Shown: piece after piece, positions 3,784 through 63,742 of the stretch
Position numbering within the stretch: position 1 is the stretch's first letter
Layout: each line of letters opens with the position of its first letter
Source of the DNA: Shigella phage Sf21
Sequence record: MF327007
Direction: 5' to 3' (one strand)
Length of the DNA stretch: 64,000 nt
The notes under the pieces: model-generated
Database searches by the model: none
Told to the model about the DNA's origin: nothing
What the model saw: only the letters and a program-made list of their open reading frames with translations
Made by a program: the position numbers and the translations under genes

Positions 3784-3859
3784 TGGTCGAGGCAGTAGGG
3801 ATCGAACCTACGACCCAGGACTTAGAAGGTCCTTGCTCTTCCTTCTGAGCTATGCCCCG
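3784..3859 (-). tRNA. tRNA-Arg (anticodon UCU)
   Basis: 76-nt cloverleaf read on minus strand; anticodon loop CUUCUAA; T-arm GTAGG-TTCGATC-CCTAC; CCA encoded. Confidence 0.85.
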
Positions 3860-3863
3860 TAAT

Positions 3864-3939
3864 TGGGGTGACCGATGGGAGTCGAACCCATGACTACGAG
3901 AATCACAATCTCGAGTTCTACCAACTGAACTACGGCCAC
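3864..3939 (-). tRNA. tRNA-His (anticodon GUG), no encoded G-1
   Basis: 76 nt; anticodon loop UUGUGAU identical to E. coli tRNA-His loop; discriminator C73; base at -1 is U not G. Confidence 0.7.
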
Positions 3940-4053
3940 ATTAATACCTACTCCAACAATCAAGATGTCTTCACACGAAATTAAGAGAAGAGTGATCAGT
4001 TCAACCCCTATAATCGCGTCAAGTAGATATTAATGTGACAGTTGTCACAAATT

Positions 4054-4128
4054 TGGCGGACGTGATAGGATTCGAACCTATAACCAATCGCTTAACAGGC
4101 GATCGCTCTGCCATTGAGCTACACATCC
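4054..4128 (-). tRNA. tRNA-Asn (anticodon GUU)
   Basis: 75 nt; anticodon stem ATCGC/GCGAT, loop CUGUUAA; T-arm ATAGG-TTCGAAT-CCTAT; CCA encoded. Confidence 0.8.
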
Positions 4129-4132
4129 AAAT

Positions 4133-4219
4133 TGGTGGGGAGTGGTGGAGTCGAACCACCCGAGTCGCAATGACAATGAATTTACAGTCCACACCGCTAC
4201 CTCTACGGGATAACTCCCC
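4133..4219 (-). tRNA. tRNA-Tyr (anticodon GUA), class II with long variable arm
   Basis: 87 nt; anticodon loop CUGUAAA with G-U containing stem; T-arm GGTGG-TTCGACT-CCACC; CCA encoded. Confidence 0.7.
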
Positions 4220-4232
4220 CTAATTCTTAATT

Positions 4233-4307
4233 TGGTGGCCCTGGGTGGAATTGAACCACCATCTGGCGATTATGAGTCGCTTGCTTGAACCTTCCAGCTA
4301 CAGGGCC
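4233..4307 (-). tRNA. tRNA with CAU anticodon (T4 tRNA-Ile-like, or Met)
   Basis: 75 nt; perfect 7-bp acceptor stem GGCCCTG/CAGGGCC; anticodon loop CUCAUAA; CCA encoded. Confidence 0.75.
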
Positions 4308-4308
4308 T

Positions 4309-4384
4309 TGGTGCTGATTGACGGAATCGAACCGCCGACCTTCTCATTACAAGTGAGTTGCTCTACCTACTGAGCTAAATCAGC
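4309..4384 (-). tRNA. tRNA-Thr (anticodon UGU)
   Basis: 76 nt; anticodon loop CUUGUAA; D-arm GCTC-AGTAGGTA-GAGC; CCA encoded. Confidence 0.85.
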
Positions 4385-4389
4385 AAAAC

Positions 4390-4479
4390 TGGCGGAGGCG
4401 ATAGGATTTGAACCTATGAGTCGCCGGAGCGACTGCCGGTTTTCAAGACCGGTGCATTAAACCACTCTGCCACGCCTCC
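4390..4479 (-). tRNA. tRNA-Ser (anticodon UGA), class II
   Basis: 90 nt; anticodon stem CCGGT/ACCGG, loop CUUGAAA; long variable arm; CCA encoded. Confidence 0.85.
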
Positions 4480-4481
4480 AG

Positions 4482-4555
4482 TCTCCGCGGCAGGATTTGA
4501 ACCTACGACATTCTGCTCCCAAAGCAGACGCTCTACCAAACTGAGCTACACGGAG
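4482..4555 (-). tRNA. tRNA-Pro (anticodon UGG)
   Basis: anticodon stem TCTGC/GCAGA, loop UUUGGGA; T-loop TTCAAAT; CCA not encoded. Confidence 0.8.
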
Positions 4556-4565
4556 TAAATTAAAT

Positions 4566-4639
<74 letters not shown>

Positions 4640-4644
4640 AAATT

Positions 4645-4731
4645 TGGTGCGAGAAGTGGGACTCGAACCCACAAGGAAATCATTCCGCAGCATTTTAAGT
4701 GCTGTGCCTTTACCAATTTGACCATTCTCGC
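4645..4731 (-). tRNA. tRNA-Leu (anticodon UAA), class II
   Basis: 87 nt; anticodon stem CAGCA/TGCTG, loop CUUAAAA; long variable arm; CCA encoded. Confidence 0.85.
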
Positions 4732-4732
4732 G

Positions 4733-4805
4733 CTGGGAATAAAGGACTCGAACCTTTGCATCTAGCAGTCAAAGTGCTATGCCTTACCAACTTGGCTAAT
4801 TCCCA
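4733..4805 (-). tRNA. tRNA-Gln (anticodon UUG)
   Basis: 73 nt; anticodon stem TAGCA/TGCTA, loop CUUUGAC; CCA not encoded; abuts tRNA-Leu. Confidence 0.85.
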
Positions 4806-6283: not shown

Positions 6284-6311
6284 TTTATTCTCCTCAGTAG
6301 TTGATAGGGTA

Positions 6312-6341
6312 ATAGTATCACTACCCCATCTAAAAGTAAAC
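6312..6341 (-). promoter_or_regulatory. T4-type early promoter (conserved module copy)
   Basis: GTTTAC-N18-TACTAT; precedes 6098..6283. Confidence 0.7.
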
Positions 6342-6575
6342 TTATTTTTTACGAAAAATTGATTTATTTTCTGCTGCCCATTTTTCAATAACTGCAGCAG
6401 GACCAGTAACAACAATTTTATCACCGTAATCTTCTGCGGCGAGTTGACCGAAATTATCTAATGCATCACGAAGAACTCCATGAGGCATTTCACCCATTTT
6501 ATCTTTCTTGCCAGTGTAAATAAACTCAACTTTTACATCAGCAGTTTCAGCAATAAATTCTTGGTAAGTTTTCAT
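6342..6575 (-). CDS. virion internal protein (IP family) with capsid targeting sequence MKTYQEFIAE
   Basis: N-terminus matches the T4 internal-protein capsid targeting sequence; own early promoter at 6610-6639; start taken at second ATG. Confidence 0.65.
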   Translation of the reverse strand: MKTYQEFIAETADVKVEFIYTGKKDKMGEMPHGVLRDALDNFGQLAAEDYGDKIVVTGPAAVIEKWAAENKSIFRKK

Positions 6576-6609
6576 TTTGATTTCCATTTGGTTTTGTTTT
6601 GATAGGGTA

Positions 6610-6639
6610 ATAGTATCACAACTAAAACCCTATGTAAAC
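6610..6639 (-). promoter_or_regulatory. T4-type early promoter (conserved module copy)
   Basis: AATTTCACAAAGTTGTTTAC-N18-TACTAT; precedes IP gene 6342..6575. Confidence 0.75.
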
Positions 6640-6651
6640 AACTTTGTGAAA

Positions 6652-6909
6652 TTATTTTAAATCTTCTAATCGTTTTTTCATCTTAGAACCATTTTTAGCA
6701 ATTTCTCCTGCATCGGAGCATAATGCTAAAAGTGCTTTAACTTTCGTTTGGTCTCCTTTAAAAGATGAAGGATCTACTGCAGCAGCAAGTTCTTTAATAC
6801 GAGAGAAAAGACGCTCAGCTTCAGCTAAAGCCATTCCAAGCTTTACTTCCATACCGTGGGAAGATTCAGTGATAGTAGTTTTTGTAGTAAACTCTTTGAA
6901 AGTTTTCAT
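6652..6909 (-). CDS. virion internal protein (IP family), ipI-position gene
   Basis: N-terminus MKTFKEFTTK...TE is capsid-targeting-like; SD AGGAAAAT; own early promoter at 6940-6969; adjacent to 57B as ipI is in T4. Confidence 0.6.
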   Translation of the reverse strand: MKTFKEFTTKTTITESSHGMEVKLGMALAEAERLFSRIKELAAAVDPSSFKGDQTKVKALLALCSDAGEIAKNGSKMKKRLEDLK

Positions 6910-6939
6910 TTTATTTTCCTAATTAATTTTGATGAGATA

Positions 6940-6969
6940 ATAGTATCACTACCTCATCAGCATGTAAAC
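6940..6969 (-). promoter_or_regulatory. T4-type early promoter (conserved module copy)
   Basis: AATTTCACAAAGTTGTTTAC-N18-TACTAT; precedes IP gene 6652..6909. Confidence 0.75.
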
Positions 6970-6981
6970 AACTTTGTGAAA

Positions 6982-7666
<685 letters not shown>

Positions 7667-9078: not shown

Positions 9079-9903
9079 TTAAATATTTGACCAGACTTTG
9101 TTTGCAGAGAAACGTTTTCCTTTTGAAACGAACTGCTGAAGTGGCATCAATACAACGTTCGCCCAGTCTTTCGGGGCGATTTCAACAAGGCTACCCATAA
9201 TATTACCAGGTATATATGCCTTAATCATTTGGTCTGCACCCCTAAATCCTTTCACTTGACTCCAATCAATTTTTAATTTCGTTTTATTAGTAATAGTAGG
9301 TGTATTTGAATATTGCTTTAAAAGCTCTTCTAGGAATTGCTGGCGAGCTTTAGGTGGAATATAGTGCAAGTTCAATCCGTACATTAAATTATGCTTACCT
9401 AAACCAAGGTAAATTATCAAAGGAAATTTATCCCAGTAAGGAAGAGTTTCCTTGTGTTTAGCATCATAAGCAAAAGCATATATTCGTCCCGGCTGCGGGC
9501 GAACAACTTTATGTCCTTTTACTTGCTTAATAGTTTCAGCAAACCACTTTCTGGTTTTATTATTAATTGCTGCGCCTTCATTACGAATTTTATCGCGCAA
9601 TGTTTGTCTGAATGAATTTATCATAAGCAGTTGTCTTTCTTGCTTATTGAGTTTATTCATTGGTTTTGATTCAAGCTTTTGAATCTTTTCAGCTGTTTTA
9701 ATTCCTGAAGCATATTTTGACATTGCCGAAGTAAACGTAGAGTATTTGATTCCTCTTTCTTCAGCAAATTGCTTTCCTGTCATTCCTTTTGCTTTGGCCT
9801 TTCTGTATTCAAGACCTATCTGAATCCATTTCTTTTCGTTTAATGATTGCTTAACCTTTGGAACTTGGGGAGTGCTTTCATTAATTATTTGAAAAATAGC
9901 CAT
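9079..9903 (-). CDS. 2: DNA end protector protein gp2
   Basis: 274 aa, same as T4 gp2; basic protein; synteny. Confidence 0.85.
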
Positions 9904-10355
9904 TATGCCCCCTTAAAGCCAAGAGCTCGTAATCCATCTTCTGTTAGAATTCTAAATTTTATTCCACGCTTTTCAGCTAAAGATTGTGCTGCTTTCCATT
10001 TGTCGGTATTAACAGAATATGTATAAATTTCATTCATAAATCTTTTCTTCGCTGCGGTTGTTAGATGTGCTGGTTTAACTGGTGGTTGTGTTTCTTTTTT
10101 AGGTTTTATTTCAATAAAAAATTCTTGTCCAGAAGAATCTTTCATCCAAATATCCATGAAGTATCTACGTTTTTTCCCTTCTGCATTACAAAAATAAGGA
10201 ATTACTGCTGTTTCACTACCCCATGCAATAATTTCTGGATTTTTATCTAACCATTCAAAAAAGAATTTTTCCCAATTTGATCTATACGTAATTTTTTTAG
10301 GGTCACCTCTATACTTTGATATATTTTTAGGAACCCATTTTCCAGAATATGCCAT
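9903..10355 (-). CDS. 4: head completion protein gp4
   Basis: 150 aa, same as T4 gp4; late promoter TATAAATA (minus) at 10382-10389. Confidence 0.85.
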
Positions 10356-10366
10356 TGGATTCTCCT

Positions 10367-10374
10367 TATAAATA
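10367..10374 (+). promoter_or_regulatory. T4 late promoter core TATAAATA (gene 53)
   Basis: exact TATAAATA 29 nt upstream of gene 53 ATG. Confidence 0.7.
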
Positions 10375-10389: not shown

Positions 10390-10402
10390 AACAGGAGGGC
10401 CC

Positions 10403-11279
10403 ATGCTCTTTACATTTTTTGATCCGATTGAATATGCGGCCAAAACGGTGAATAAAAACGCGCCGACTATTCCTATGACAGATATTTTTAGAAACTATAA
10501 AGACTATTTTAAACGCGCTCTTGCGGGATACCGCTTACGTACTTATTATATCAAAGGTTCACCACGCCCGGAAGAATTAGCAAATACTATATATGGAAAT
10601 CCGCAGTTGTATTGGGTTTTATTGATGTGTAATGATAATTATGATCCGTATTATGGATGGATTACTTCGCAAGAAGCTGCTTATCAAGCATCTATACAAA
10701 AATACAAAAACGTAGGTGGAGACCAAATAGTATATCATGTGAATGAGAACGGTGAAAAATTTTATAATTTAATATCATACGATGATAATCCATATGTTTG
10801 GTATGACAAAGGCGATAAAGCTAGAAAATATCTATATCAAAGGTTCACCACGCCCGGAAGAATTAGCAAATACTATATATGGAAATCCGCAGTTGTATTG
10901 GGTTTTATTGATGTGTAATGATAATTATGATCCGTATTATGGATGGATTACTTCGCAAGAAGCTGCTTATCAAGCATCTATACAAAAATACAAAAACGTA
11001 GGTGGAGACCAAATAGTATATCATGTGAATGAGAACGGTGAAAAATTTTATAATTTAATATCATACGATGATAATCCATATGTTTGGTATGACAAAGGCG
11101 ATAAAGCTAGAAAATATCCTCAATATGAAGGAGCACTTGCTGCGGTCGATACGTATGAAGCTGCTGTTCTTGAAAATGAAAAACTTCGTCAAATAAAAAT
11201 AATAGCAAAATCAGACATCAATTCATTTATGAACGACCTTATACGTATAATGGAGAAATCTTATGGAAATGATAAGTAA
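10403..11279 (+). pseudogene. 53: baseplate wedge protein gp53, frame disrupted by internal 286-bp tandem duplication (fragments 10403..10918 and 10782..11279)
   Basis: Two overlapping ORFs share an identical ~95-aa block in different frames; removing one repeat copy gives a single 196-aa ORF, the T4 gp53 length. Confidence 0.8.
10547..11118. repeat. perfect tandem direct repeat, 2 x 286 bp
   Basis: 10547-10832 is identical base-for-base to 10833-11118; unit length not a multiple of 3. Confidence 0.9.
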
Positions 11280-12990
11280 TAACCTTAATTGGTTTGTTGG
11301 TGTTGTTGAAGATAGAATGGACCCATTAAAATTAGGTCGTGTTCGTGTTCGTGTAGTTGGTCTGCATCCACCTCAAAGAGCACAAGGCGATGTAATGGGT
11401 ATTCCAACTGAAAAATTACCATGGATGTCAGTTATTCAACCTATAACTTCTGCAGCAATGTCTGGAATTGGAGGTTCTGTTACTGGACCGGTAGAAGGAA
11501 CTAGAGTTTATGGTCATTTTTTAGACAAATGGAAAACTAATGGAATTGTCCTTGGCACGTATGGTGGAATAGTTCGCGAAAAACCGAATAGACTTGAAGG
11601 ATTTTCTGACCCAACTGGGCAATATCCTAGACGTTTAGGAAATGATACTAATGTATTAAACCAAGGCGGAGAAGTAGGATATGATTCGTCTTCTAACATT
11701 ATCCAAGATAGTAACTTAGACACTGCAATAAATCCCGATGATAGACCACTATCAGAGATTCCAACCGATGATAATCCAAATATGTCAATGGCTGACATGC
11801 TTCGCCGTGATGAAGGATTAAGACTAAAAGTTTATTGGGATACTGAAGGATATCCGACAATTGGTATTGGTCATCTTATCATGAAGCAGCCAGTTCGTGA
11901 TATGGCTCAAATTAATAAAGTTTTATCAAAACAAGTTGGTCGTGAAATTACTGGAAACCCAGGTTCTATTACGATGGAAGAGGCGACGACTTTATTTGAA
12001 CGTGATTTGGCTGATATGCAACGGGACATTAAATCACATTCTAAAGTAGGACCAGTCTGGCAAGCTGTCAACCGTTCTCGTCAAATGGCGTTAGAAAATA
12101 TGGCATTTCAAATGGGTGTTGGCGGTGTAGCTAAATTTAACACAATGTTAACTGCTATGTTAGCCGGAGATTGGGAAAAAGCATATAAAGCCGGTCGTGA
12201 TTCATTGTGGTATCAACAAACAAAAGGCCGTGCATCCCGTGTTACCATGATTATTCTTACGGGGAATTTGGAATCATATGGTGTTGAAGTGAAAACCCCA
12301 GCTAGGTCTCTATCAGCAATGGCTGCTACTGTAGCTAAATCTTCTGACCCGGCTGACCCTCCTATTCCAAATGACTCGAGAATTTTATTCAAAGAACCAG
12401 TTTCTTCATATAAAGGTGAATATCCTTATGTGCATACAATGGAAACTGAAAGCGGACATATTCAGGAATTTGATGATACTCCTGGGCAAGAACGATACAG
12501 ATTAGTTCATCCGACTGGAACTTATGAAGAAGTATCACCGTCAGGAAGAAGAACAAGAAAAACTGTCGATAATTTGTATGATATAACCAACGCTGATGGT
12601 AATTTTTTGGTAGCCGGTGATAAAAAGACTAACGTCGGTGGATCAGAAATTTATTACAACATGGATAATCGTCTTCACCAAATAGATGGAAGCAATACAA
12701 TATTTGTACGTGGCGATGAAACTAAGACAGTTGAAGGCAATGGAACTATCCTAGTTAAAGGTAATGTTACTATTGTAGTTGAAGGTAATGCTGACATTAC
12801 AGTTAAAGGAGATGCTACCACTTTAGTTGAAGGAAATCAAACTAACACAGTAAATGGAAATCTTTCTTGGAAAGTTGCTGGGACAGTTGATTGGGACGTT
12901 GGTGGTGATTGGACAGAAAAAATGGCATCTATGAGTTCTATTTCATCTGGTCAATACACAATTGATGGATCGAGGATTGACATTGGCTAA
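11263..12990 (+). CDS. 5: baseplate central spike gp5 (hub, tail lysozyme and beta-helix needle)
   Basis: 575 aa as T4 gp5; lysozyme segment DTEGYPTIGIGHL; C-terminal VxGxxxxx beta-helix repeats. Confidence 0.95.
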   Translation: MEMISNNLNWFVGVVEDRMDPLKLGRVRVRVVGLHPPQRAQGDVMGIPTEKLPWMSVIQPITSAAMSGIGGSVTGPVEGTRVYGHFLDKWKTNGIVLGTYGGIVREKPNRLEGFSDPTGQYPRRLGNDTNVLNQGGEVGYDSSSNIIQDSNLDTAINPDDRPLSEIPTDDNPNMSMADMLRRDEGLRLKVYWDTEGYPTIGIGHLIMKQPVRDMAQINKVLSKQVGREITGNPGSITMEEATTLFERDLADMQRDIKSHSKVGPVWQAVNRSRQMALENMAFQMGVGGVAKFNTMLTAMLAGDWEKAYKAGRDSLWYQQTKGRASRVTMIILTGNLESYGVEVKTPARSLSAMAATVAKSSDPADPPIPNDSRILFKEPVSSYKGEYPYVHTMETESGHIQEFDDTPGQERYRLVHPTGTYEEVSPSGRRTRKTVDNLYDITNADGNFLVAGDKKTNVGGSEIYYNMDNRLHQIDGSNTIFVRGDETKTVEGNGTILVKGNVTIVVEGNADITVKGDATTLVEGNQTNTVNGNLSWKVAGTVDWDVGGDWTEKMASMSSISSGQYTIDGSRIDIG

Positions 12991-42211: not shown

Positions 42212-43636
42212 TTATGGATAGGTATAGATGATACCAGTTTCTAAAGCAGTTTTATGAATGATGTATCCATTGCGTGATTCTTGAACATCAACTTCTGGAT
42301 AGTCTTTCATCATCTTCTGAAGAGTGTAACGATGCAGGTAGTATTTACTGTCTGGATCTTCAGTTTTCCAATCTTTACCTTCTTCGGTCATTTTTTGGAT
42401 TTCATCCATAACCCACCAACCGCACCAGATATAAGCTGAAGTACGATGTGGAAGAGGATGAACATAAGGCAATTCACCTTCTGGTTCCGGAGCAACTTTA
42501 TCAGTTACCTGAACTTGGCCTGTTGCTTTAACTGTTTTACTATCATAGTCGGTTGCTGTAACGACAGCAGTAACTTCAATAGTTTGACTTCCAATAGATG
42601 AGGTGTCAACGGTGTATACGTTAGTTGACCCTTCTACAGGAGAAGAATCTTTCTTCCATGAATAAGTAATTTGTGCTGCTTCAGGTGCTCCAGTAACATT
42701 AGCCGTAAATGTAGCCGAAGCATCTTGCTGAACGTTAATAGAAGGAGGAGTCAATGTAACCTGTGGATTCATTGTCTTCTTATTAACTGTCAATGATACT
42801 TCATTAGAAGTAACTTCCTTTTCATTGTAATTTTCTGCAGTTACTTGCGCTACACATTTAATTCTTTTTACTCCACTTGTAGTTGGAGTATAGTTAAATG
42901 TAGAGTTAGTTTCTCCACCAATTTGAGAATCATCTACATACCACTTATATGTAGCAGACGCTCCATCAGGTTGAGAAGCTAAGGCAGCAGTAAATTGAAC
43001 TGGAGTTCCAATTACTCCAGCTGAAGGACTATTAGGAGTTACAACTAAAGTAGTCGCTTGGGTTTTCTTGTTAACAGTCAGCGACACTTCGTCAGAAGTA
43101 ACGGTCTTTGTATCATAATCTGTCGCAGTTACTTGAGCTACACACTTAATTTTTTTAACTCCGCTTATGGCAGGAGTATAGTTAAATGTAGCGTCAGTTG
43201 CTTCTCCCACAGGAGAACCGTCGACGTGCCATTGATACGTAGCAGATGCACCTGGCGGCTGTGAATCTAAGGCAGCGGTAAATTGAACAGCTGTTCCGAT
43301 TACTCCTTCCGAAGGACTATCAGGAGTTACTGTTATTGTAGTAGTCTGTGTCTTATTTTGAACTGTGATAGTTGTCGTAGTTTCTGCTGTTTCAGGTTCA
43401 GCTTCAGATTCTGGAACTGTATTTGTTGCAACTACTTTAATAGTCTTTTGACCTGCAGGTCCTTTTAGTACATAGCTAAAAGTTGCTTCAGCTCCATCCT
43501 GTGGAACATTATCTACACTCCAAGCATAGGTAATAGTTCCACCTTCAGTTTGACCACTGGGTGCAGCAGTAAACTGCTTGGTTTCATCAATAACTCCTGT
43601 TGGGGTTTTAGGAGTTATATCAACTGTAAAAGCCAT
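42212..43636 (-). CDS. hoc: highly immunogenic outer capsid protein Hoc, with tandem Ig-like domains
   Basis: 474 aa; repeated ~95-aa Ig-like units, also seen as DNA repeats; start ATG with SD AAGGATAA. Confidence 0.85.
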   Translation of the reverse strand: MAFTVDITPKTPTGVIDETKQFTAAPSGQTEGGTITYAWSVDNVPQDGAEATFSYVLKGPAGQKTIKVVATNTVPESEAEPETAETTTTITVQNKTQTTTITVTPDSPSEGVIGTAVQFTAALDSQPPGASATYQWHVDGSPVGEATDATFNYTPAISGVKKIKCVAQVTATDYDTKTVTSDEVSLTVNKKTQATTLVVTPNSPSAGVIGTPVQFTAALASQPDGASATYKWYVDDSQIGGETNSTFNYTPTTSGVKRIKCVAQVTAENYNEKEVTSNEVSLTVNKKTMNPQVTLTPPSINVQQDASATFTANVTGAPEAAQITYSWKKDSSPVEGSTNVYTVDTSSIGSQTIEVTAVVTATDYDSKTVKATGQVQVTDKVAPEPEGELPYVHPLPHRTSAYIWCGWWVMDEIQKMTEEGKDWKTEDPDSKYYLHRYTLQKMMKDYPEVDVQESRNGYIIHKTALETGIIYTYP

Positions 43637-54793: not shown

Positions 54794-56851
54794 CTACATT
54801 TTGAACTTTTTAGACATTCCGTTGATGTTAACCAAAGAAGCCAAGATTTGAGAAACTTCGTTTTCCTCTTCTTTTGATTCTTCTACAAGGAATTGATTAA
54901 ATCCAGCCATTGGACGAACTTCACCAGTTTCCATTAGATGGTCTCCATCATATACTGATTCTTCTAATTGTTCAGAAGGAGGAACGATTGTACCTTCGAT
55001 TAGATACTTGTTATAAGCAGTTTCTTTCATAAAGTAAGTACTTACTTTATTAATCTTCAGTAAAATTCCACGTGGTAGAATAACTTCAGCTTCTGATGGA
55101 AATCCTGATAAATGACCTGGAACGATAACTTTGATTCGCTCAGCTCCTTTAATTACCATACCCACGCTAGTTTCAGCATCTTCATTAGCATATGTAGAAT
55201 GACTACCCATATGCATCAAATCTTCTGCATCAACAGAACCTTCTCCTTCGCCAGAAAATACTGCACCGGAATCATCTAGAGCCATATAGTTTTTACCATG
55301 CTCGCCGAAGATATTTGGTTTAAGTGATGTCGATACGAAGTTCTTGAAATAGAACATTTTATTTTCAATGTTATGACGCAAAGTTTTAAAGGTAACTTCT
55401 TGTCCACGGTAAAGTGTAGTTCCTGGAGGAAGAACTGAACCTTTAGCGAATGCAGAATCAAGCGTCTCAATATGTTTAATAGCTCGTTCCATATATTCTT
55501 CACGGGTAGAATCTGGTTTACCCAAAAGGAACGAGTTCATTTCAACATATGAATCTGCACAATAATCTTCAATTACATCAGATTCAGCTTGAGTTAATCC
55601 TTTTGGAGTTACTTCAGTGCTTGCGTATTCATATGCCTGAGCAGCAGATTCATTAATCAATTTATAAATGCCATTCATGACAAATTGAATAATAGCTGTC
55701 TTTTCATCTGGCGTAGCTTTAGAACCTTTAACCAAATCATTGACAATTTTCTTAATAACATCAAAGCTATTAGAAATATTAATGTCAGCGAGATCGCTCA
55801 AAATTTTATCGGTTTTATAATCAAAGAATTCTTTATTCTTTAAATATTCTTGAGAACCTTGATATGTTATATCGCTCTGCAGTCTGATAGACGGATCGCG
55901 TAAACGTGCATGGGCCAATGCAATATGATTTCGGAAGCTTTCTAGTTCATAATCGTTAGATTTAAAACGAGAAGCACTTCTCATACCACCGATAGCTCCT
56001 TTGCTGAAGTTTGAACCAATCTGAATAACGCCAGAGTTCATTGGTCCTTCTGCTTTATATACCGGAACTTTAGATTCAAACTCTTGATATTTCTTGGCAG
56101 CGAAGCTATCACCCTGTAGCGAAGCATCGACAGTAGAATATTGAGCTTGTGCTGCTAATCGACGACTAATTTTAGTTTTCTGAATAACAGCTTGATCCGT
56201 GCGCTTATCATTTTCTAAAGCAATAGAAGCAGCAACAGCAACAGCTTTAGGAACAGCATTACCTGTTTTAACGTCTACATAAACATCACCGACCTTTGAT
56301 TCAACTTTTGTGAATAACTCAGTTGAAATAGGAGGTACACCTGGAATGTCTTCTAAATTGGCATTTTTACGGTAAACCATAATATATGCATATTTCTTAT
56401 CATAGTCCCAGATTTCCTTTAAAAGAACATATCGACCTGCTCCTTTAGTACGTACTAAACGGTCAGCAATAACTTGCATTTGACGAGCTGCGCCATTTGT
56501 TTTACTTTTTAGTACGCGGAATAGGCATGCGTCGATTTTATACTGTTTCATTGTTTGAAGAGCAGTATCAAAAACGGCATTAATGACACCAATTGGATTT
56601 CCACCCAAGTTTTTAAGCTTAACTAATGATAGTTTCTCATTAACACCTATCATTACGATATGCATCATTTTATCGCCTGGCTTAACGTTTTTATTCGTAT
56701 CACCACCAGAGGTGTATGTACAAAATCTAAATCCAGGAAGCACGCTTTCTTCGCCGGCTTGAATAGCAAAAATTTGTGGTATTTTATGCTTAGGATTTAA
56801 GTTAACAACCGGCGCCGAAGCGCCGTCAAATAATTCTGTAATAAGTTCCAT
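54794..56851 (-). CDS. Alt-like mono-ADP-ribosyltransferase, paralog 1 (divergent C-terminal catalytic domain)
   Basis: 685 aa; N-terminus MELITELFD shared with paralog 2; R-S-E triad (LYRGQ, STS, EAEVILPRG); SD AAGGATAAATC. Confidence 0.85.
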   Translation of the reverse strand: MELITELFDGASAPVVNLNPKHKIPQIFAIQAGEESVLPGFRFCTYTSGGDTNKNVKPGDKMMHIVMIGVNEKLSLVKLKNLGGNPIGVINAVFDTALQTMKQYKIDACLFRVLKSKTNGAARQMQVIADRLVRTKGAGRYVLLKEIWDYDKKYAYIMVYRKNANLEDIPGVPPISTELFTKVESKVGDVYVDVKTGNAVPKAVAVAASIALENDKRTDQAVIQKTKISRRLAAQAQYSTVDASLQGDSFAAKKYQEFESKVPVYKAEGPMNSGVIQIGSNFSKGAIGGMRSASRFKSNDYELESFRNHIALAHARLRDPSIRLQSDITYQGSQEYLKNKEFFDYKTDKILSDLADINISNSFDVIKKIVNDLVKGSKATPDEKTAIIQFVMNGIYKLINESAAQAYEYASTEVTPKGLTQAESDVIEDYCADSYVEMNSFLLGKPDSTREEYMERAIKHIETLDSAFAKGSVLPPGTTLYRGQEVTFKTLRHNIENKMFYFKNFVSTSLKPNIFGEHGKNYMALDDSGAVFSGEGEGSVDAEDLMHMGSHSTYANEDAETSVGMVIKGAERIKVIVPGHLSGFPSEAEVILPRGILLKINKVSTYFMKETAYNKYLIEGTIVPPSEQLEESVYDGDHLMETGEVRPMAGFNQFLVEESKEEENEVSQILASLVNINGMSKKFKM

Positions 56852-56854
56852 GAT

Positions 56855-58909
56855 TTATCCTTGAACGAACTTGTAAGGCATGTTTGCAATATCTATACAA
56901 GACGCAATAATTCCAAGAGATGATTCTACTTTCTGTTTAACATTTGATGAAACAAATGATGCAAAGTCAACTCTGTCTTCTACTTCAATATCACCTGTCA
57001 TTGCAACCAATTCACCAGTTTCCATTAAATGGTCTCCGTCATAGATTACCGATTCGGTGAGCTCTTCCGTGGTCATAACTTCAGCTTGAATAAGCTTGTT
57101 GTTAGTTTTAACTGTTCCATCATTGTAAGATGCATCAGTTATTTTATTAACTTTGACCATTAATCCACGTGGCAAAATAACTTCCATTTCATTTGAAGGC
57201 GCTAAACTTCCACCGGGTAAAACAACATTGACTTTATCAGCCCCAGTAATAACCCATCCAATTCCGACTAAATTATCGCTAGAATTAACAAGCCCTTCAT
57301 CATTTTTATCGATAGAAATGTTTAGACGCTTTTCATCTGGTAAAACACCAACAGCTGAATCAGTCATCCAAGTACCAAAAATGTTTGGATATAATGATGT
57401 TGATACAAAATTTCTAAAATAAAAAACTCGATTTTTTACCAATGCTTCATATATTGAAGGTAACATTCGCTGTGAACGATATAAAGTAATACCTTTTGGC
57501 AATCGATCACCATTTTTAAAGGCTGAATCTAAATTATCAATAGCTTTTTCTATGTCAGATGCTGTCAAAATACTTGTACGCTCATCTGGATTATATAATC
57601 CCAAAAGAGCATTATTTATGTCTACATATCCTGAACCTACGTATTCACGAATTCCGCGTTTTTGTGCTGGTGTGTATTTAGATGAATCTTTATTTTCGAC
57701 TATAGGATGTAATGACCATCCAGCTGTAAGAGCATATCCACGTAATTCTCTTCGAATAATCTTTGTTTTTATTGCATTCCAAGAATTTTGTACTAACTCA
57801 TTTGCAGCATCTTGGTTTAAATGCGAATGTTTGTTAATATTTCTTTCAAACCAAGCACCTTTATATTTTTCTAAAGTATCATCGACGATAGAAGCAATAG
57901 TTTCTAAAGTTTTTATTGAAGTAATAGATTCTTTTCGTAATTTTTCTAAAGCTTTATTTTTTATTTCTGCATTAATAATGGATTCTTTATCTTCAGGAAT
58001 TATAGAAGCTTCTCTGAATGCCATCCCAGCTGTAACACTGCTAAGAGCATTCTCTAGTGCAAATCCTGAAGTAGAAATTACCGTTAATTCATTAGAATCA
58101 GAAATTAAAGGCGCGTCCGCTGGTTTATTTAATTCTGCCGCTGAAGCCTCAAATTTTTGAAACATCGGTGTTTCAAATCTAGAAGATTCCAATGACTGAC
58201 TTTGTGCAATTGCTCTACGGGAAATTTTAACTTTAACGATTACGGCTTGGTCAGAACGTTTATCATTTTCTTGTGCAATAGATGCAGCAATTGCCTCATT
58301 TTTGGTTACTTGAGCTCCAGTATCTTTATTGATATAAACATCACCGACCTTCGATTCAACTTTAGTAAAGAGCTCGGTGCTAATTTCTGGAACTCCTGGA
58401 ATGTCTTCTAGTGATACATTTTTACGATGTATAAGAATATATGCATACTTTTTATCGTAATCCCAGAGTTCCTTAAGAAGGACGTATCTGCCACCTGAAC
58501 GACTACGGATAAGTCTATCAGCAATAACTTGAATTTGTCGAGCTTGGCCAGCAGTTTTAGACTTAAGAATACGAAGCATACAAGCATCAATTTTATATTG
58601 ACGCATTGTTTGCATTGCAACAGTAAAAACTGAATTGATATAATTAATTGGGCTTGGACCAAGACCTTTTAATTTAGCAATTGAACCTTTAGCAGTTAAT
58701 GTAAAAGGAACAATATGCATCATTTTATCGCCCATTTTTAAATCGCGATTAGTATCACCTCCAGATGTATAGGTACATAAACGAAAGCCTGGTTGTTCAA
58801 TTGCATCATCAACATGAACTGAAAAAATTTGCGGTATTTTCTTCTTTGGATTTAAGTTTGTAATCGGAAGAGTAGTATCTTCGTCAAATAATTCTGTAAT
58901 AAGTTCCAT
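56855..58909 (-). CDS. alt: Alt mono-ADP-ribosyltransferase (packaged, modifies host RNA polymerase)
   Basis: 684 aa from second ATG; R-S-E triad (LYRSQ, STS, EMEVILPRG); TATAAATA (minus) at 58933-58940; adjacent to gene 30. Confidence 0.9.
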   Translation of the reverse strand: MELITELFDEDTTLPITNLNPKKKIPQIFSVHVDDAIEQPGFRLCTYTSGGDTNRDLKMGDKMMHIVPFTLTAKGSIAKLKGLGPSPINYINSVFTVAMQTMRQYKIDACMLRILKSKTAGQARQIQVIADRLIRSRSGGRYVLLKELWDYDKKYAYILIHRKNVSLEDIPGVPEISTELFTKVESKVGDVYINKDTGAQVTKNEAIAASIAQENDKRSDQAVIVKVKISRRAIAQSQSLESSRFETPMFQKFEASAAELNKPADAPLISDSNELTVISTSGFALENALSSVTAGMAFREASIIPEDKESIINAEIKNKALEKLRKESITSIKTLETIASIVDDTLEKYKGAWFERNINKHSHLNQDAANELVQNSWNAIKTKIIRRELRGYALTAGWSLHPIVENKDSSKYTPAQKRGIREYVGSGYVDINNALLGLYNPDERTSILTASDIEKAIDNLDSAFKNGDRLPKGITLYRSQRMLPSIYEALVKNRVFYFRNFVSTSLYPNIFGTWMTDSAVGVLPDEKRLNISIDKNDEGLVNSSDNLVGIGWVITGADKVNVVLPGGSLAPSNEMEVILPRGLMVKVNKITDASYNDGTVKTNNKLIQAEVMTTEELTESVIYDGDHLMETGELVAMTGDIEVEDRVDFASFVSSNVKQKVESSLGIIASCIDIANMPYKFVQG

Positions 58910-58932
58910 CATAGCCTCTCTAGTGTTTATTC

Positions 58933-63654: not shown

Positions 63655-63681
63655 TTTATTCTCCTTTGTTTGTGTAAGATA

Positions 63682-63711
63682 ATACTATCACAAAGGAACC
63701 ATACTGTAAAC
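63682..63711 (-). promoter_or_regulatory. T4-type early promoter (conserved module copy)
   Basis: CATAAAGTTGTTTAC-N18-TAGTAT; precedes 63322..63654. Confidence 0.7.
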
Positions 63712-63742
63712 AACTTTATGCAATCTTTGGAAAATAAAAAAG

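Follow-up and report, generated by a model that had tools for sequence, protein, structure and literature searches.

The tandem duplications described in phage T4 carry a recognizable signature at their junctions. All five of the independent dmd-tifA amplifications reported by Srikant et al. involved 6-10 bp of microhomology, one copy of which was kept at the junction, and the rII duplications, Hp17 and the CRISPR-escape events cited by the same authors were associated with 2-10 bp. Duplicated sequence can also enter a phage record by a purely technical route. T4 packages headfuls of about 102% of its genome from concatemers, and the recognised artefacts of phage assembly include artificial overlaps at contig ends, contigs longer than the genome (over 100% of its length) and redundancies that come to lie internally. 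The gene of concern in this work encodes gp53, the penultimate subunit of the T4 baseplate wedge, which is needed for the binding of gp25 and for the association of six wedges into the baseplate. It is counted among the essential genes of T4, and in phage SEA1, once the gp53 homologue had been replaced, plaques formed only with the protein supplied in trans; the description of gp53 as essential in an earlier note on this DNA is thereby in keeping with the literature on both phages.

The window examined here (the whole stretch of DNA that was analysed, 64,000 nucleotides of sequence record MF327007 of Shigella phage Sf21) is of Tequatrovirus origin. Gene 53 occupies its conserved position between the divergent gene 4 and gene 5, the start of which overlaps the gene 53 end. 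The elements of the locus and of the repeat found within it are as follows.

9079..9903, minus strand: gene 2, DNA end protector, 274 aa; its 3' end is the origin of the sister records Sf20, Sf24 and Sf25
9903..10355, minus strand: gene 4, head completion, 150 aa, intact, divergent from gene 53
10367..10374, plus strand: T4-type late promoter TATAAATA, upstream of gene 53, from a motif scan
10547..10832, plus strand: copy 1 of the 286-bp unit; gene 53 nt 145-430, that is, codons 49-143 and the first base of the next codon
10833..11118, plus strand: copy 2 of the 286-bp unit, identical to copy 1; gp53 frame displaced +1 relative to ORF1
10818..10847, no strand assigned: novel junction AAGCTAGAAAATATC / TATATCAAAGGTTCA (10832/10833), with no microhomology and absent from all public sequence searched
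11263..12990, plus strand: gene 5, baseplate hub and tail lysozyme, 575 aa, intact; overlaps the gene 53 end as in T4

The promoter was assigned by its agreement with the T4 late promoter consensus, and the motif scan also placed a Shine-Dalgarno sequence (AGGAGG) downstream of it, directly before the gene 53 ATG. Two further features of the adjoining gene 5 may be recorded. A 45-aa antisense ORF (11285..11422, minus strand) lies inside the 5' end of the gene, some 170 bp downstream of the duplication, and matches in position repEB, annotated in phage T2 as the oriE replication initiation protein. Imperfect 24/48-nt tandem repeats towards the 3' end of the gene (12729-12861; a period of 8 or 16 codons) presumably encode the repeating octapeptides of the gp5 C-terminal beta-helix needle.

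Direct comparison of 10547-10832 with 10833-11118 found 286 of 286 bases identical in a head-to-tail direct repeat, and Tandem Repeats Finder returned 100% matches with a period of 286, 2.0 copies and a score of 1144; the perfect 286-bp tandem duplication that had been described in gene 53 is thus confirmed. The repeat can be extended neither leftward, where T precedes copy 1 and the last base of the unit is C, nor rightward, where C follows copy 2 and the first base of the unit is T, and for this reason it consists of exactly two copies. A chance match over 286 bases has a probability of 4^-286 and is effectively impossible, and no second long perfect repeat occurs within the 64-kb window. 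Since 286 is not a multiple of three (3 x 95 + 1), the reading frame of gene 53 shifts at 10832/10833. For a PCR across 10400-11300, the products of about 880 and 590 bp that had been anticipated should be amended: the computed length is 901 bp if the duplication is present and 615 bp if it is not.

The consequence for the coding sequence is that gene 53 is broken into overlapping reading frames, two of them apparent from the sequence and a third chosen by the depositors.

10403..10918, plus strand: ORF1, 171 aa; gp53 residues 1-144 and a 27-aa out-of-frame tail; PF11246 profile positions 1-144 of 200
10782..11279, plus strand: ORF2, 165 aa, as delimited mechanically; a 17-aa out-of-frame leader and gp53 residues 49-196; PF11246 profile positions 43-200
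10911..11279, plus strand: second half as annotated by the depositors, 122 aa; gp53 Met75-Lys196; AUV63698.1 / YP_009618959.1, 'baseplate wedge subunit'

This anatomy bears out the division of gene 53 into one frame carrying copy 1 (10403..10918) and another carrying copy 2 (10782..11279). The out-of-frame tail of ORF1 begins LYQRFTTPGRISKYYIWK, and the corresponding wild-type gp53 peptide spans KARKYPQYEGAL. ORF1 has been deposited as AUV63697.1 / YP_009618958.1, 'baseplate wedge subunit [Shigella phage Sf21]', on a contig of 166,002 bp. The exact products of ORF1 and ORF2 gave no match in the contig index, which for ORF1 is a false negative, as an exact-sequence cluster look-up places it in NCBI/RefSeq; the 165-aa product of ORF2 is not in the protein collection, and no Shine-Dalgarno sequence precedes the ORF2 ATG codons. 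The accession order of Sf21 gp7 (AUV63703.1), gp12 (AUV63708.1) and fibritin (AUV63709.1) agrees with the gene order of the window. The duplication is, then, a property of the deposited GenBank/RefSeq genome of a cultured phage. Removal of one copy yields a single 196-aa ORF, as had been proposed, and this collapsed ORF is a full-length match to the PF11246 family (profile positions 1-200, E=3.9e-103) and is identical to T4 gp53 of the solved baseplate structures (PDB 5HX2_F/5IV5) at 195 of 196 residues, the one difference being A62T. The allele so restored is an ordinary and widespread one, found on 225 contigs.

Given that two gp53 fragments have been deposited, one may ask whether they could function as such. 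Were the duplication real and the split tolerated, ORF1 (residues 1-144 and its tail) and the Met75-196 fragment would both be made, the latter by termination-reinitiation at ATGTGTAA, and would co-assemble in the baseplate. The Met75 ATG (10911-10913) lies 2 nt ahead of the ORF1 TAA stop codon (10916-10918), the two being joined in the overlap ATGTGTAA, a geometry that fits translational coupling; the depositors annotated precisely the 171-aa and 122-aa coding sequences, six copies of gp53 suffice per virion, and Sf21 is viable. We nonetheless hold a functional split of this kind to be very improbable. The overlap of start and stop at ATGTGTAA is an accidental by-product of the frameshift and is not conserved, all relatives encoding one 196-aa protein; Met75 has no Shine-Dalgarno sequence; and the fragment would probably begin inside the LysM-like domain, a domain known from the literature whose position we judged from a sequence motif. 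We know of no precedent for a split gp53.

A ribosome could in principle also rejoin the two frames. The change of frame needed at the junction is +1, as the earlier note stated, and programmed frameshifting by +1 (or -2), either at the junction or beyond it, would yield a 291-aa gp53 with an internally duplicated core. None of the +1 shift motifs CTT TGA, CTT AGG, TCC TGA and CCC TGA is found between the junction and the ORF1 stop, however, and the sole X_XXY_YYZ heptamer (G GGT TTT at 10900) would shift ribosomes by -1 into the third frame and not into that of gp53. The sequence downstream of the junction is moreover that of the native gene, and the arrangement occurs in no relative, so that nothing about it is conserved. 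The suggestion of a +1/-2 frameshifting site accordingly finds no support; programmed frameshifting is effectively refuted by the sequence, and we assign it next to no likelihood.

Gene 53 is uninterrupted in every relative that we compared. The locus is matched by 502 Tequatrovirus phage records, and among the matches listed 40 of 40 span 815 bp, which is the 1101 bp of the query less the 286 bp of one unit. In all ten contigs bearing the exact gp5 allele of the window, gene 53 is intact at 196 aa, and no indel interrupts their collinearity with the collapsed window. The best relatives are Escherichia phage REP2 (~99% identity) and others at 97-98%, with no near-clonal sibling genome found; in REP2, the closest of them, gene 53 is intact and the BLAST alignment breaks exactly at 10832. 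The gene is intact also in the sister phages Sf24 and Sf25 of the same study, the records of Sf14, Sf17, Sf20, Sf24 and Sf25 all falling within the accession block MF327003-MF327009. As a more specific probe we used 50 nt centred on 10832/10833, on which the 28-nt megablast word seeds only if the junction is present, and found no match in 50,697 phage, 72,556 plasmid and 20,395 E. coli genome records. Low-complexity masking by BLAST was ruled out as the source of these negatives by a local control, in which the probe, under default masking, matched the window and not the collapsed window. A 44-mer and a 30-mer spanning the junction had no exact match in IMG/VR, JGI metagenome contigs or GTDB genome contigs, and the wild-type boundary 30-mer, which served as positive control for these scans, was found. 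No Logan read-assembly source is listed for the Sf21 proteins. Among the sequences searched, the duplication is private to the Sf21 record.

The remainder of the window gives no indication of a generally error-prone assembly. The large structural genes are all of T4-like length, and among the 66 REP2 ORFs of at least 90 aa that have a match of at least 80% identity in the window, only gene 53 is split; the other flag raised in this comparison was a spurious antisense ORF inside gene 23. With gene 53 the sole broken gene of 66 compared, we rejected that explanation.

A chimera of two strains would leave a different trace from the one observed. Co-occurrence of T4-like phages is frequent, the window has a mosaic make-up when compared with database genomes, and a co-assembly of two such strains might in principle have set their gene 53 alleles side by side. 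The copies are, however, identical at 286 of 286 positions, among them seven at which close relatives differ (gene 53 nt 201, 243, 267, 276, 309, 405 and 411). Both copies therefore come from one allele, and the two-strain chimera is rejected as having hardly any chance of being correct.

A genuine and very recent tandem duplication in the sequenced DNA requires fuller consideration. A genome defective in gene 53 might have become abundant by founder effect or through co-infection with a wild-type helper, or the junction reads of a minority variant might have led the assembler through the repeat twice. T4-type phages do form tandem duplications and amplifications through illegitimate recombination, the zero divergence between the copies suits a very young event, and a gain of 286 bp would readily be accommodated by headful packaging with its terminal redundancy of approximately 3.3 kb. 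It is also conceivable, if speculative, that replication-associated template switching was involved, as the duplication lies about 170 bp from the repEB and oriE region. Against this, the event destroys an essential gene and has no conceivable dosage benefit, and should be counter-selected. In a phage as recombinogenic as T4, direct repeats of 286 bp would revert appreciably to a single copy in each cycle, at a rate of perhaps a few per cent, and recombination between the copies would thus regenerate wild type every cycle. Sf21 has been described as an efficient infector of both Shigella and E. coli, and a stock in which the majority genotype lacks an intact gene 53 is hard to reconcile with efficient infection; as an efficient plaque former, the phage speaks against a gene-53-defective genome. 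The junction has, furthermore, been found nowhere else, whether in phage, plasmid, E. coli, IMG/VR, metagenome or GTDB sequence.

The junction itself also differs from every T4 case cited in having 0 bp of microhomology. The closest shared run, ATATC, stands out of register by 6 nt; the junction cannot have arisen from it. As 0 bp is expected at approximately 0.56 of arbitrary junctions, and as rare homology-free illegitimate joins exist, the absence of microhomology is weak evidence, supportive of an artefact and not decisive. On balance we regard a genuine duplication as unlikely.

The reading that we favour, at a probability of roughly three in four, is that the duplication is an artefact of assembly or finishing, an untrimmed contig overlap left inside the Sf21 record. 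As the DNA of T4-like phages is circularly permuted and terminally redundant, a de novo assembly would be expected to close on itself, and its output would be either a linear contig with overlapping ends or several contigs whose neighbouring ends overlap. Were such contigs rotated or joined to a chosen origin without trimming, the overlap would become an internal, base-perfect tandem duplication at an arbitrary position. In Sf21 that position would fall within gene 53 and, with a length that is not a multiple of three, would create an apparent frameshift; the actual phage would possess an ordinary single-copy 196-aa gene 53. The placing of the original contig ends, or of a contig join, at the gene 53 site is inferred, as is the software behind an overlap of 286 bp; the artefact reading as a whole is one of inference and not of demonstration. 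What is observed agrees with it in that the copies are identical, the boundaries are arbitrary, no copy occurs in independent sequence, and the genome is of a type that assembles as a circle. Of the three readings that the earlier note had put forward, then, the artefact is preferred, a recent duplication in a mixed or defective population is retained as a minority possibility, and the frameshifting site is dropped.

The manner in which the sister genomes were deposited is pertinent to the artefact reading. The records of Sf20, Sf24 and Sf25 (MF327006, MF327008 and MF327009) all start at the 3' end of gene 2, which shows that record origins were set manually by the depositing laboratory; Sf21 itself was presumably rotated as well. 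The origin of the Sf21 record differs from that of its sisters, as ORF1 is approximately its 145th protein by accession arithmetic. In records that follow the T4 convention the gene 53 locus lies at about 74-76 kb, and the window is consistent with bases 64,001-128,000 of a record starting at rIIA. The point in the window that matches the gene 2 origin of the sisters precedes the duplication by 1,468 bp, and gene 53 by ~1.3 kb, in a genome of 166 kb; this proximity may or may not be coincidental.

Several observations count against the artefact reading. The length of 286 bp matches neither a usual de Bruijn end overlap, which for SPAdes is 127 bp, nor a standard k-mer, and one has to suppose instead a manual contig join, a long merged read or an assembler of the overlap-layout kind. 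No leftover end overlaps were found in the sister records Sf20, Sf24 and Sf25; these close cleanly, and the pipeline therefore did not leave such overlaps systematically. Last, the sequence passed both the depositors and RefSeq in its present form.

Several other features of the window are worth recording in their own right. Eleven tRNA genes (Arg, His, Asn, Tyr, Met, Thr, Ser, Pro, Gly, Leu and Gln) are clustered on the minus strand at 3784-4805; REP2 has a slightly different set of ten, and T4 has eight, fewer than the window. An intergenic repeat element of approximately 71 nt is present at 6299-6369, 6597-6667, 6927-6997 and 63669-63739, two copies of which contain minus-strand TTTACA-17-TACTAT promoters with an extended TG, consistent with early promoters of the T4 type. 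Adjacent paralogues of 685 aa each (54794..56851 and 56855..58912, minus strand) share a 50-nt stretch at 82% identity and are annotated in relatives as Alt-like RNA polymerase ADP-ribosyltransferases. A 288-nt repeat at 42774-43349 (minus strand) lies in the ORF 42212..43636, the product of which is a Hoc-like head decoration protein of 474 aa that gives faint Ig/PKD matches in Pfam. At 376 aa T4 Hoc is shorter, and the 474-aa allele thus seems to carry one extra Ig-like domain relative to T4. The identical protein is encoded in a REP2-related record (OQ174502.1) and on a metagenome scaffold; a Hoc-like protein of 474 aa is annotated in REP2 as well. A T4-like scaffold with the exact Hoc and fibritin of the window (ENA ERZ28582627, CHOI22-1_SAMN17049527_METAG-scaffold_3) is 352,897 bp long, about twice a Tequatrovirus genome, and looks like an over-length or concatemeric assembly in which a circular genome was carried past 100%.

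The significance of the Sf21 repeat is chiefly one of database hygiene. A probable finishing error of 286 bp has given rise to protein entries of 171 and 122 aa, both named "baseplate wedge subunit" and both apparently spurious, which are already propagated in RefSeq (under YP_ accessions) and NCBI nr, the 171-aa product also in UniRef. A simple rule of triage may be proposed: a base-perfect tandem repeat without microhomology at its junction, present in one record, within an essential gene of a circularly permuted phage, should be presumed an untrimmed overlap until reads contradict it. Should the duplication instead prove real, the record would offer a rare view, in a T4-like phage, of a harmful duplication soon after its origin or of a split gene that is tolerated, which would be of interest without being field-changing; a true split of gp53 would amount to a gene-fission event freshly caught in a T4-like tail machine.

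Set beside the known systems, the gene 53 repeat resembles each in part. With the programmed frameshifts of tail genes, such as lambda G/GT, it shares two overlapping ORFs in different frames within a gene of tail morphogenesis; those frameshifts are, however, conserved across relatives and have a slippery site, whereas the Sf21 arrangement occurs in one record and has no suitable site. With the T4 duplications (rII, Hp17 in genes 16-18, and dmd-tifA) it shares a head-to-tail repeat in a T4-type genome, with young and identical copies that headful packaging tolerates. The T4 events span whole genes, are selected for dosage and show 2-10 bp of microhomology, while the Sf21 unit lies within one gene, is out of frame and deleterious, and shows 0 bp; nor does it have the form left by short homology in T4, an array of more than 2.0 copies with one copy of the microhomology at the junction. 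With the artefactual end overlaps of phage assemblies, for example those of 127 bp from SPAdes, it has in common a base-perfect direct repeat, arbitrary boundaries, a junction with no biological signature and an assembly that closes on itself, and it differs in its length of 286 bp, which is not a standard k-mer size. The comparison nearest at hand is within the same window, where the Ig-like repeats of Hoc (42774-43349) form a tandem repeat of nearly equal length (288 versus 286 nt), likewise inside a structural gene. Unlike the gene 53 repeat, that of Hoc is a multiple of three (96 codons), its copies have diverged to 75% identity, its ORF is preserved and it is common to relatives; it is what a real, retained duplication looks like.
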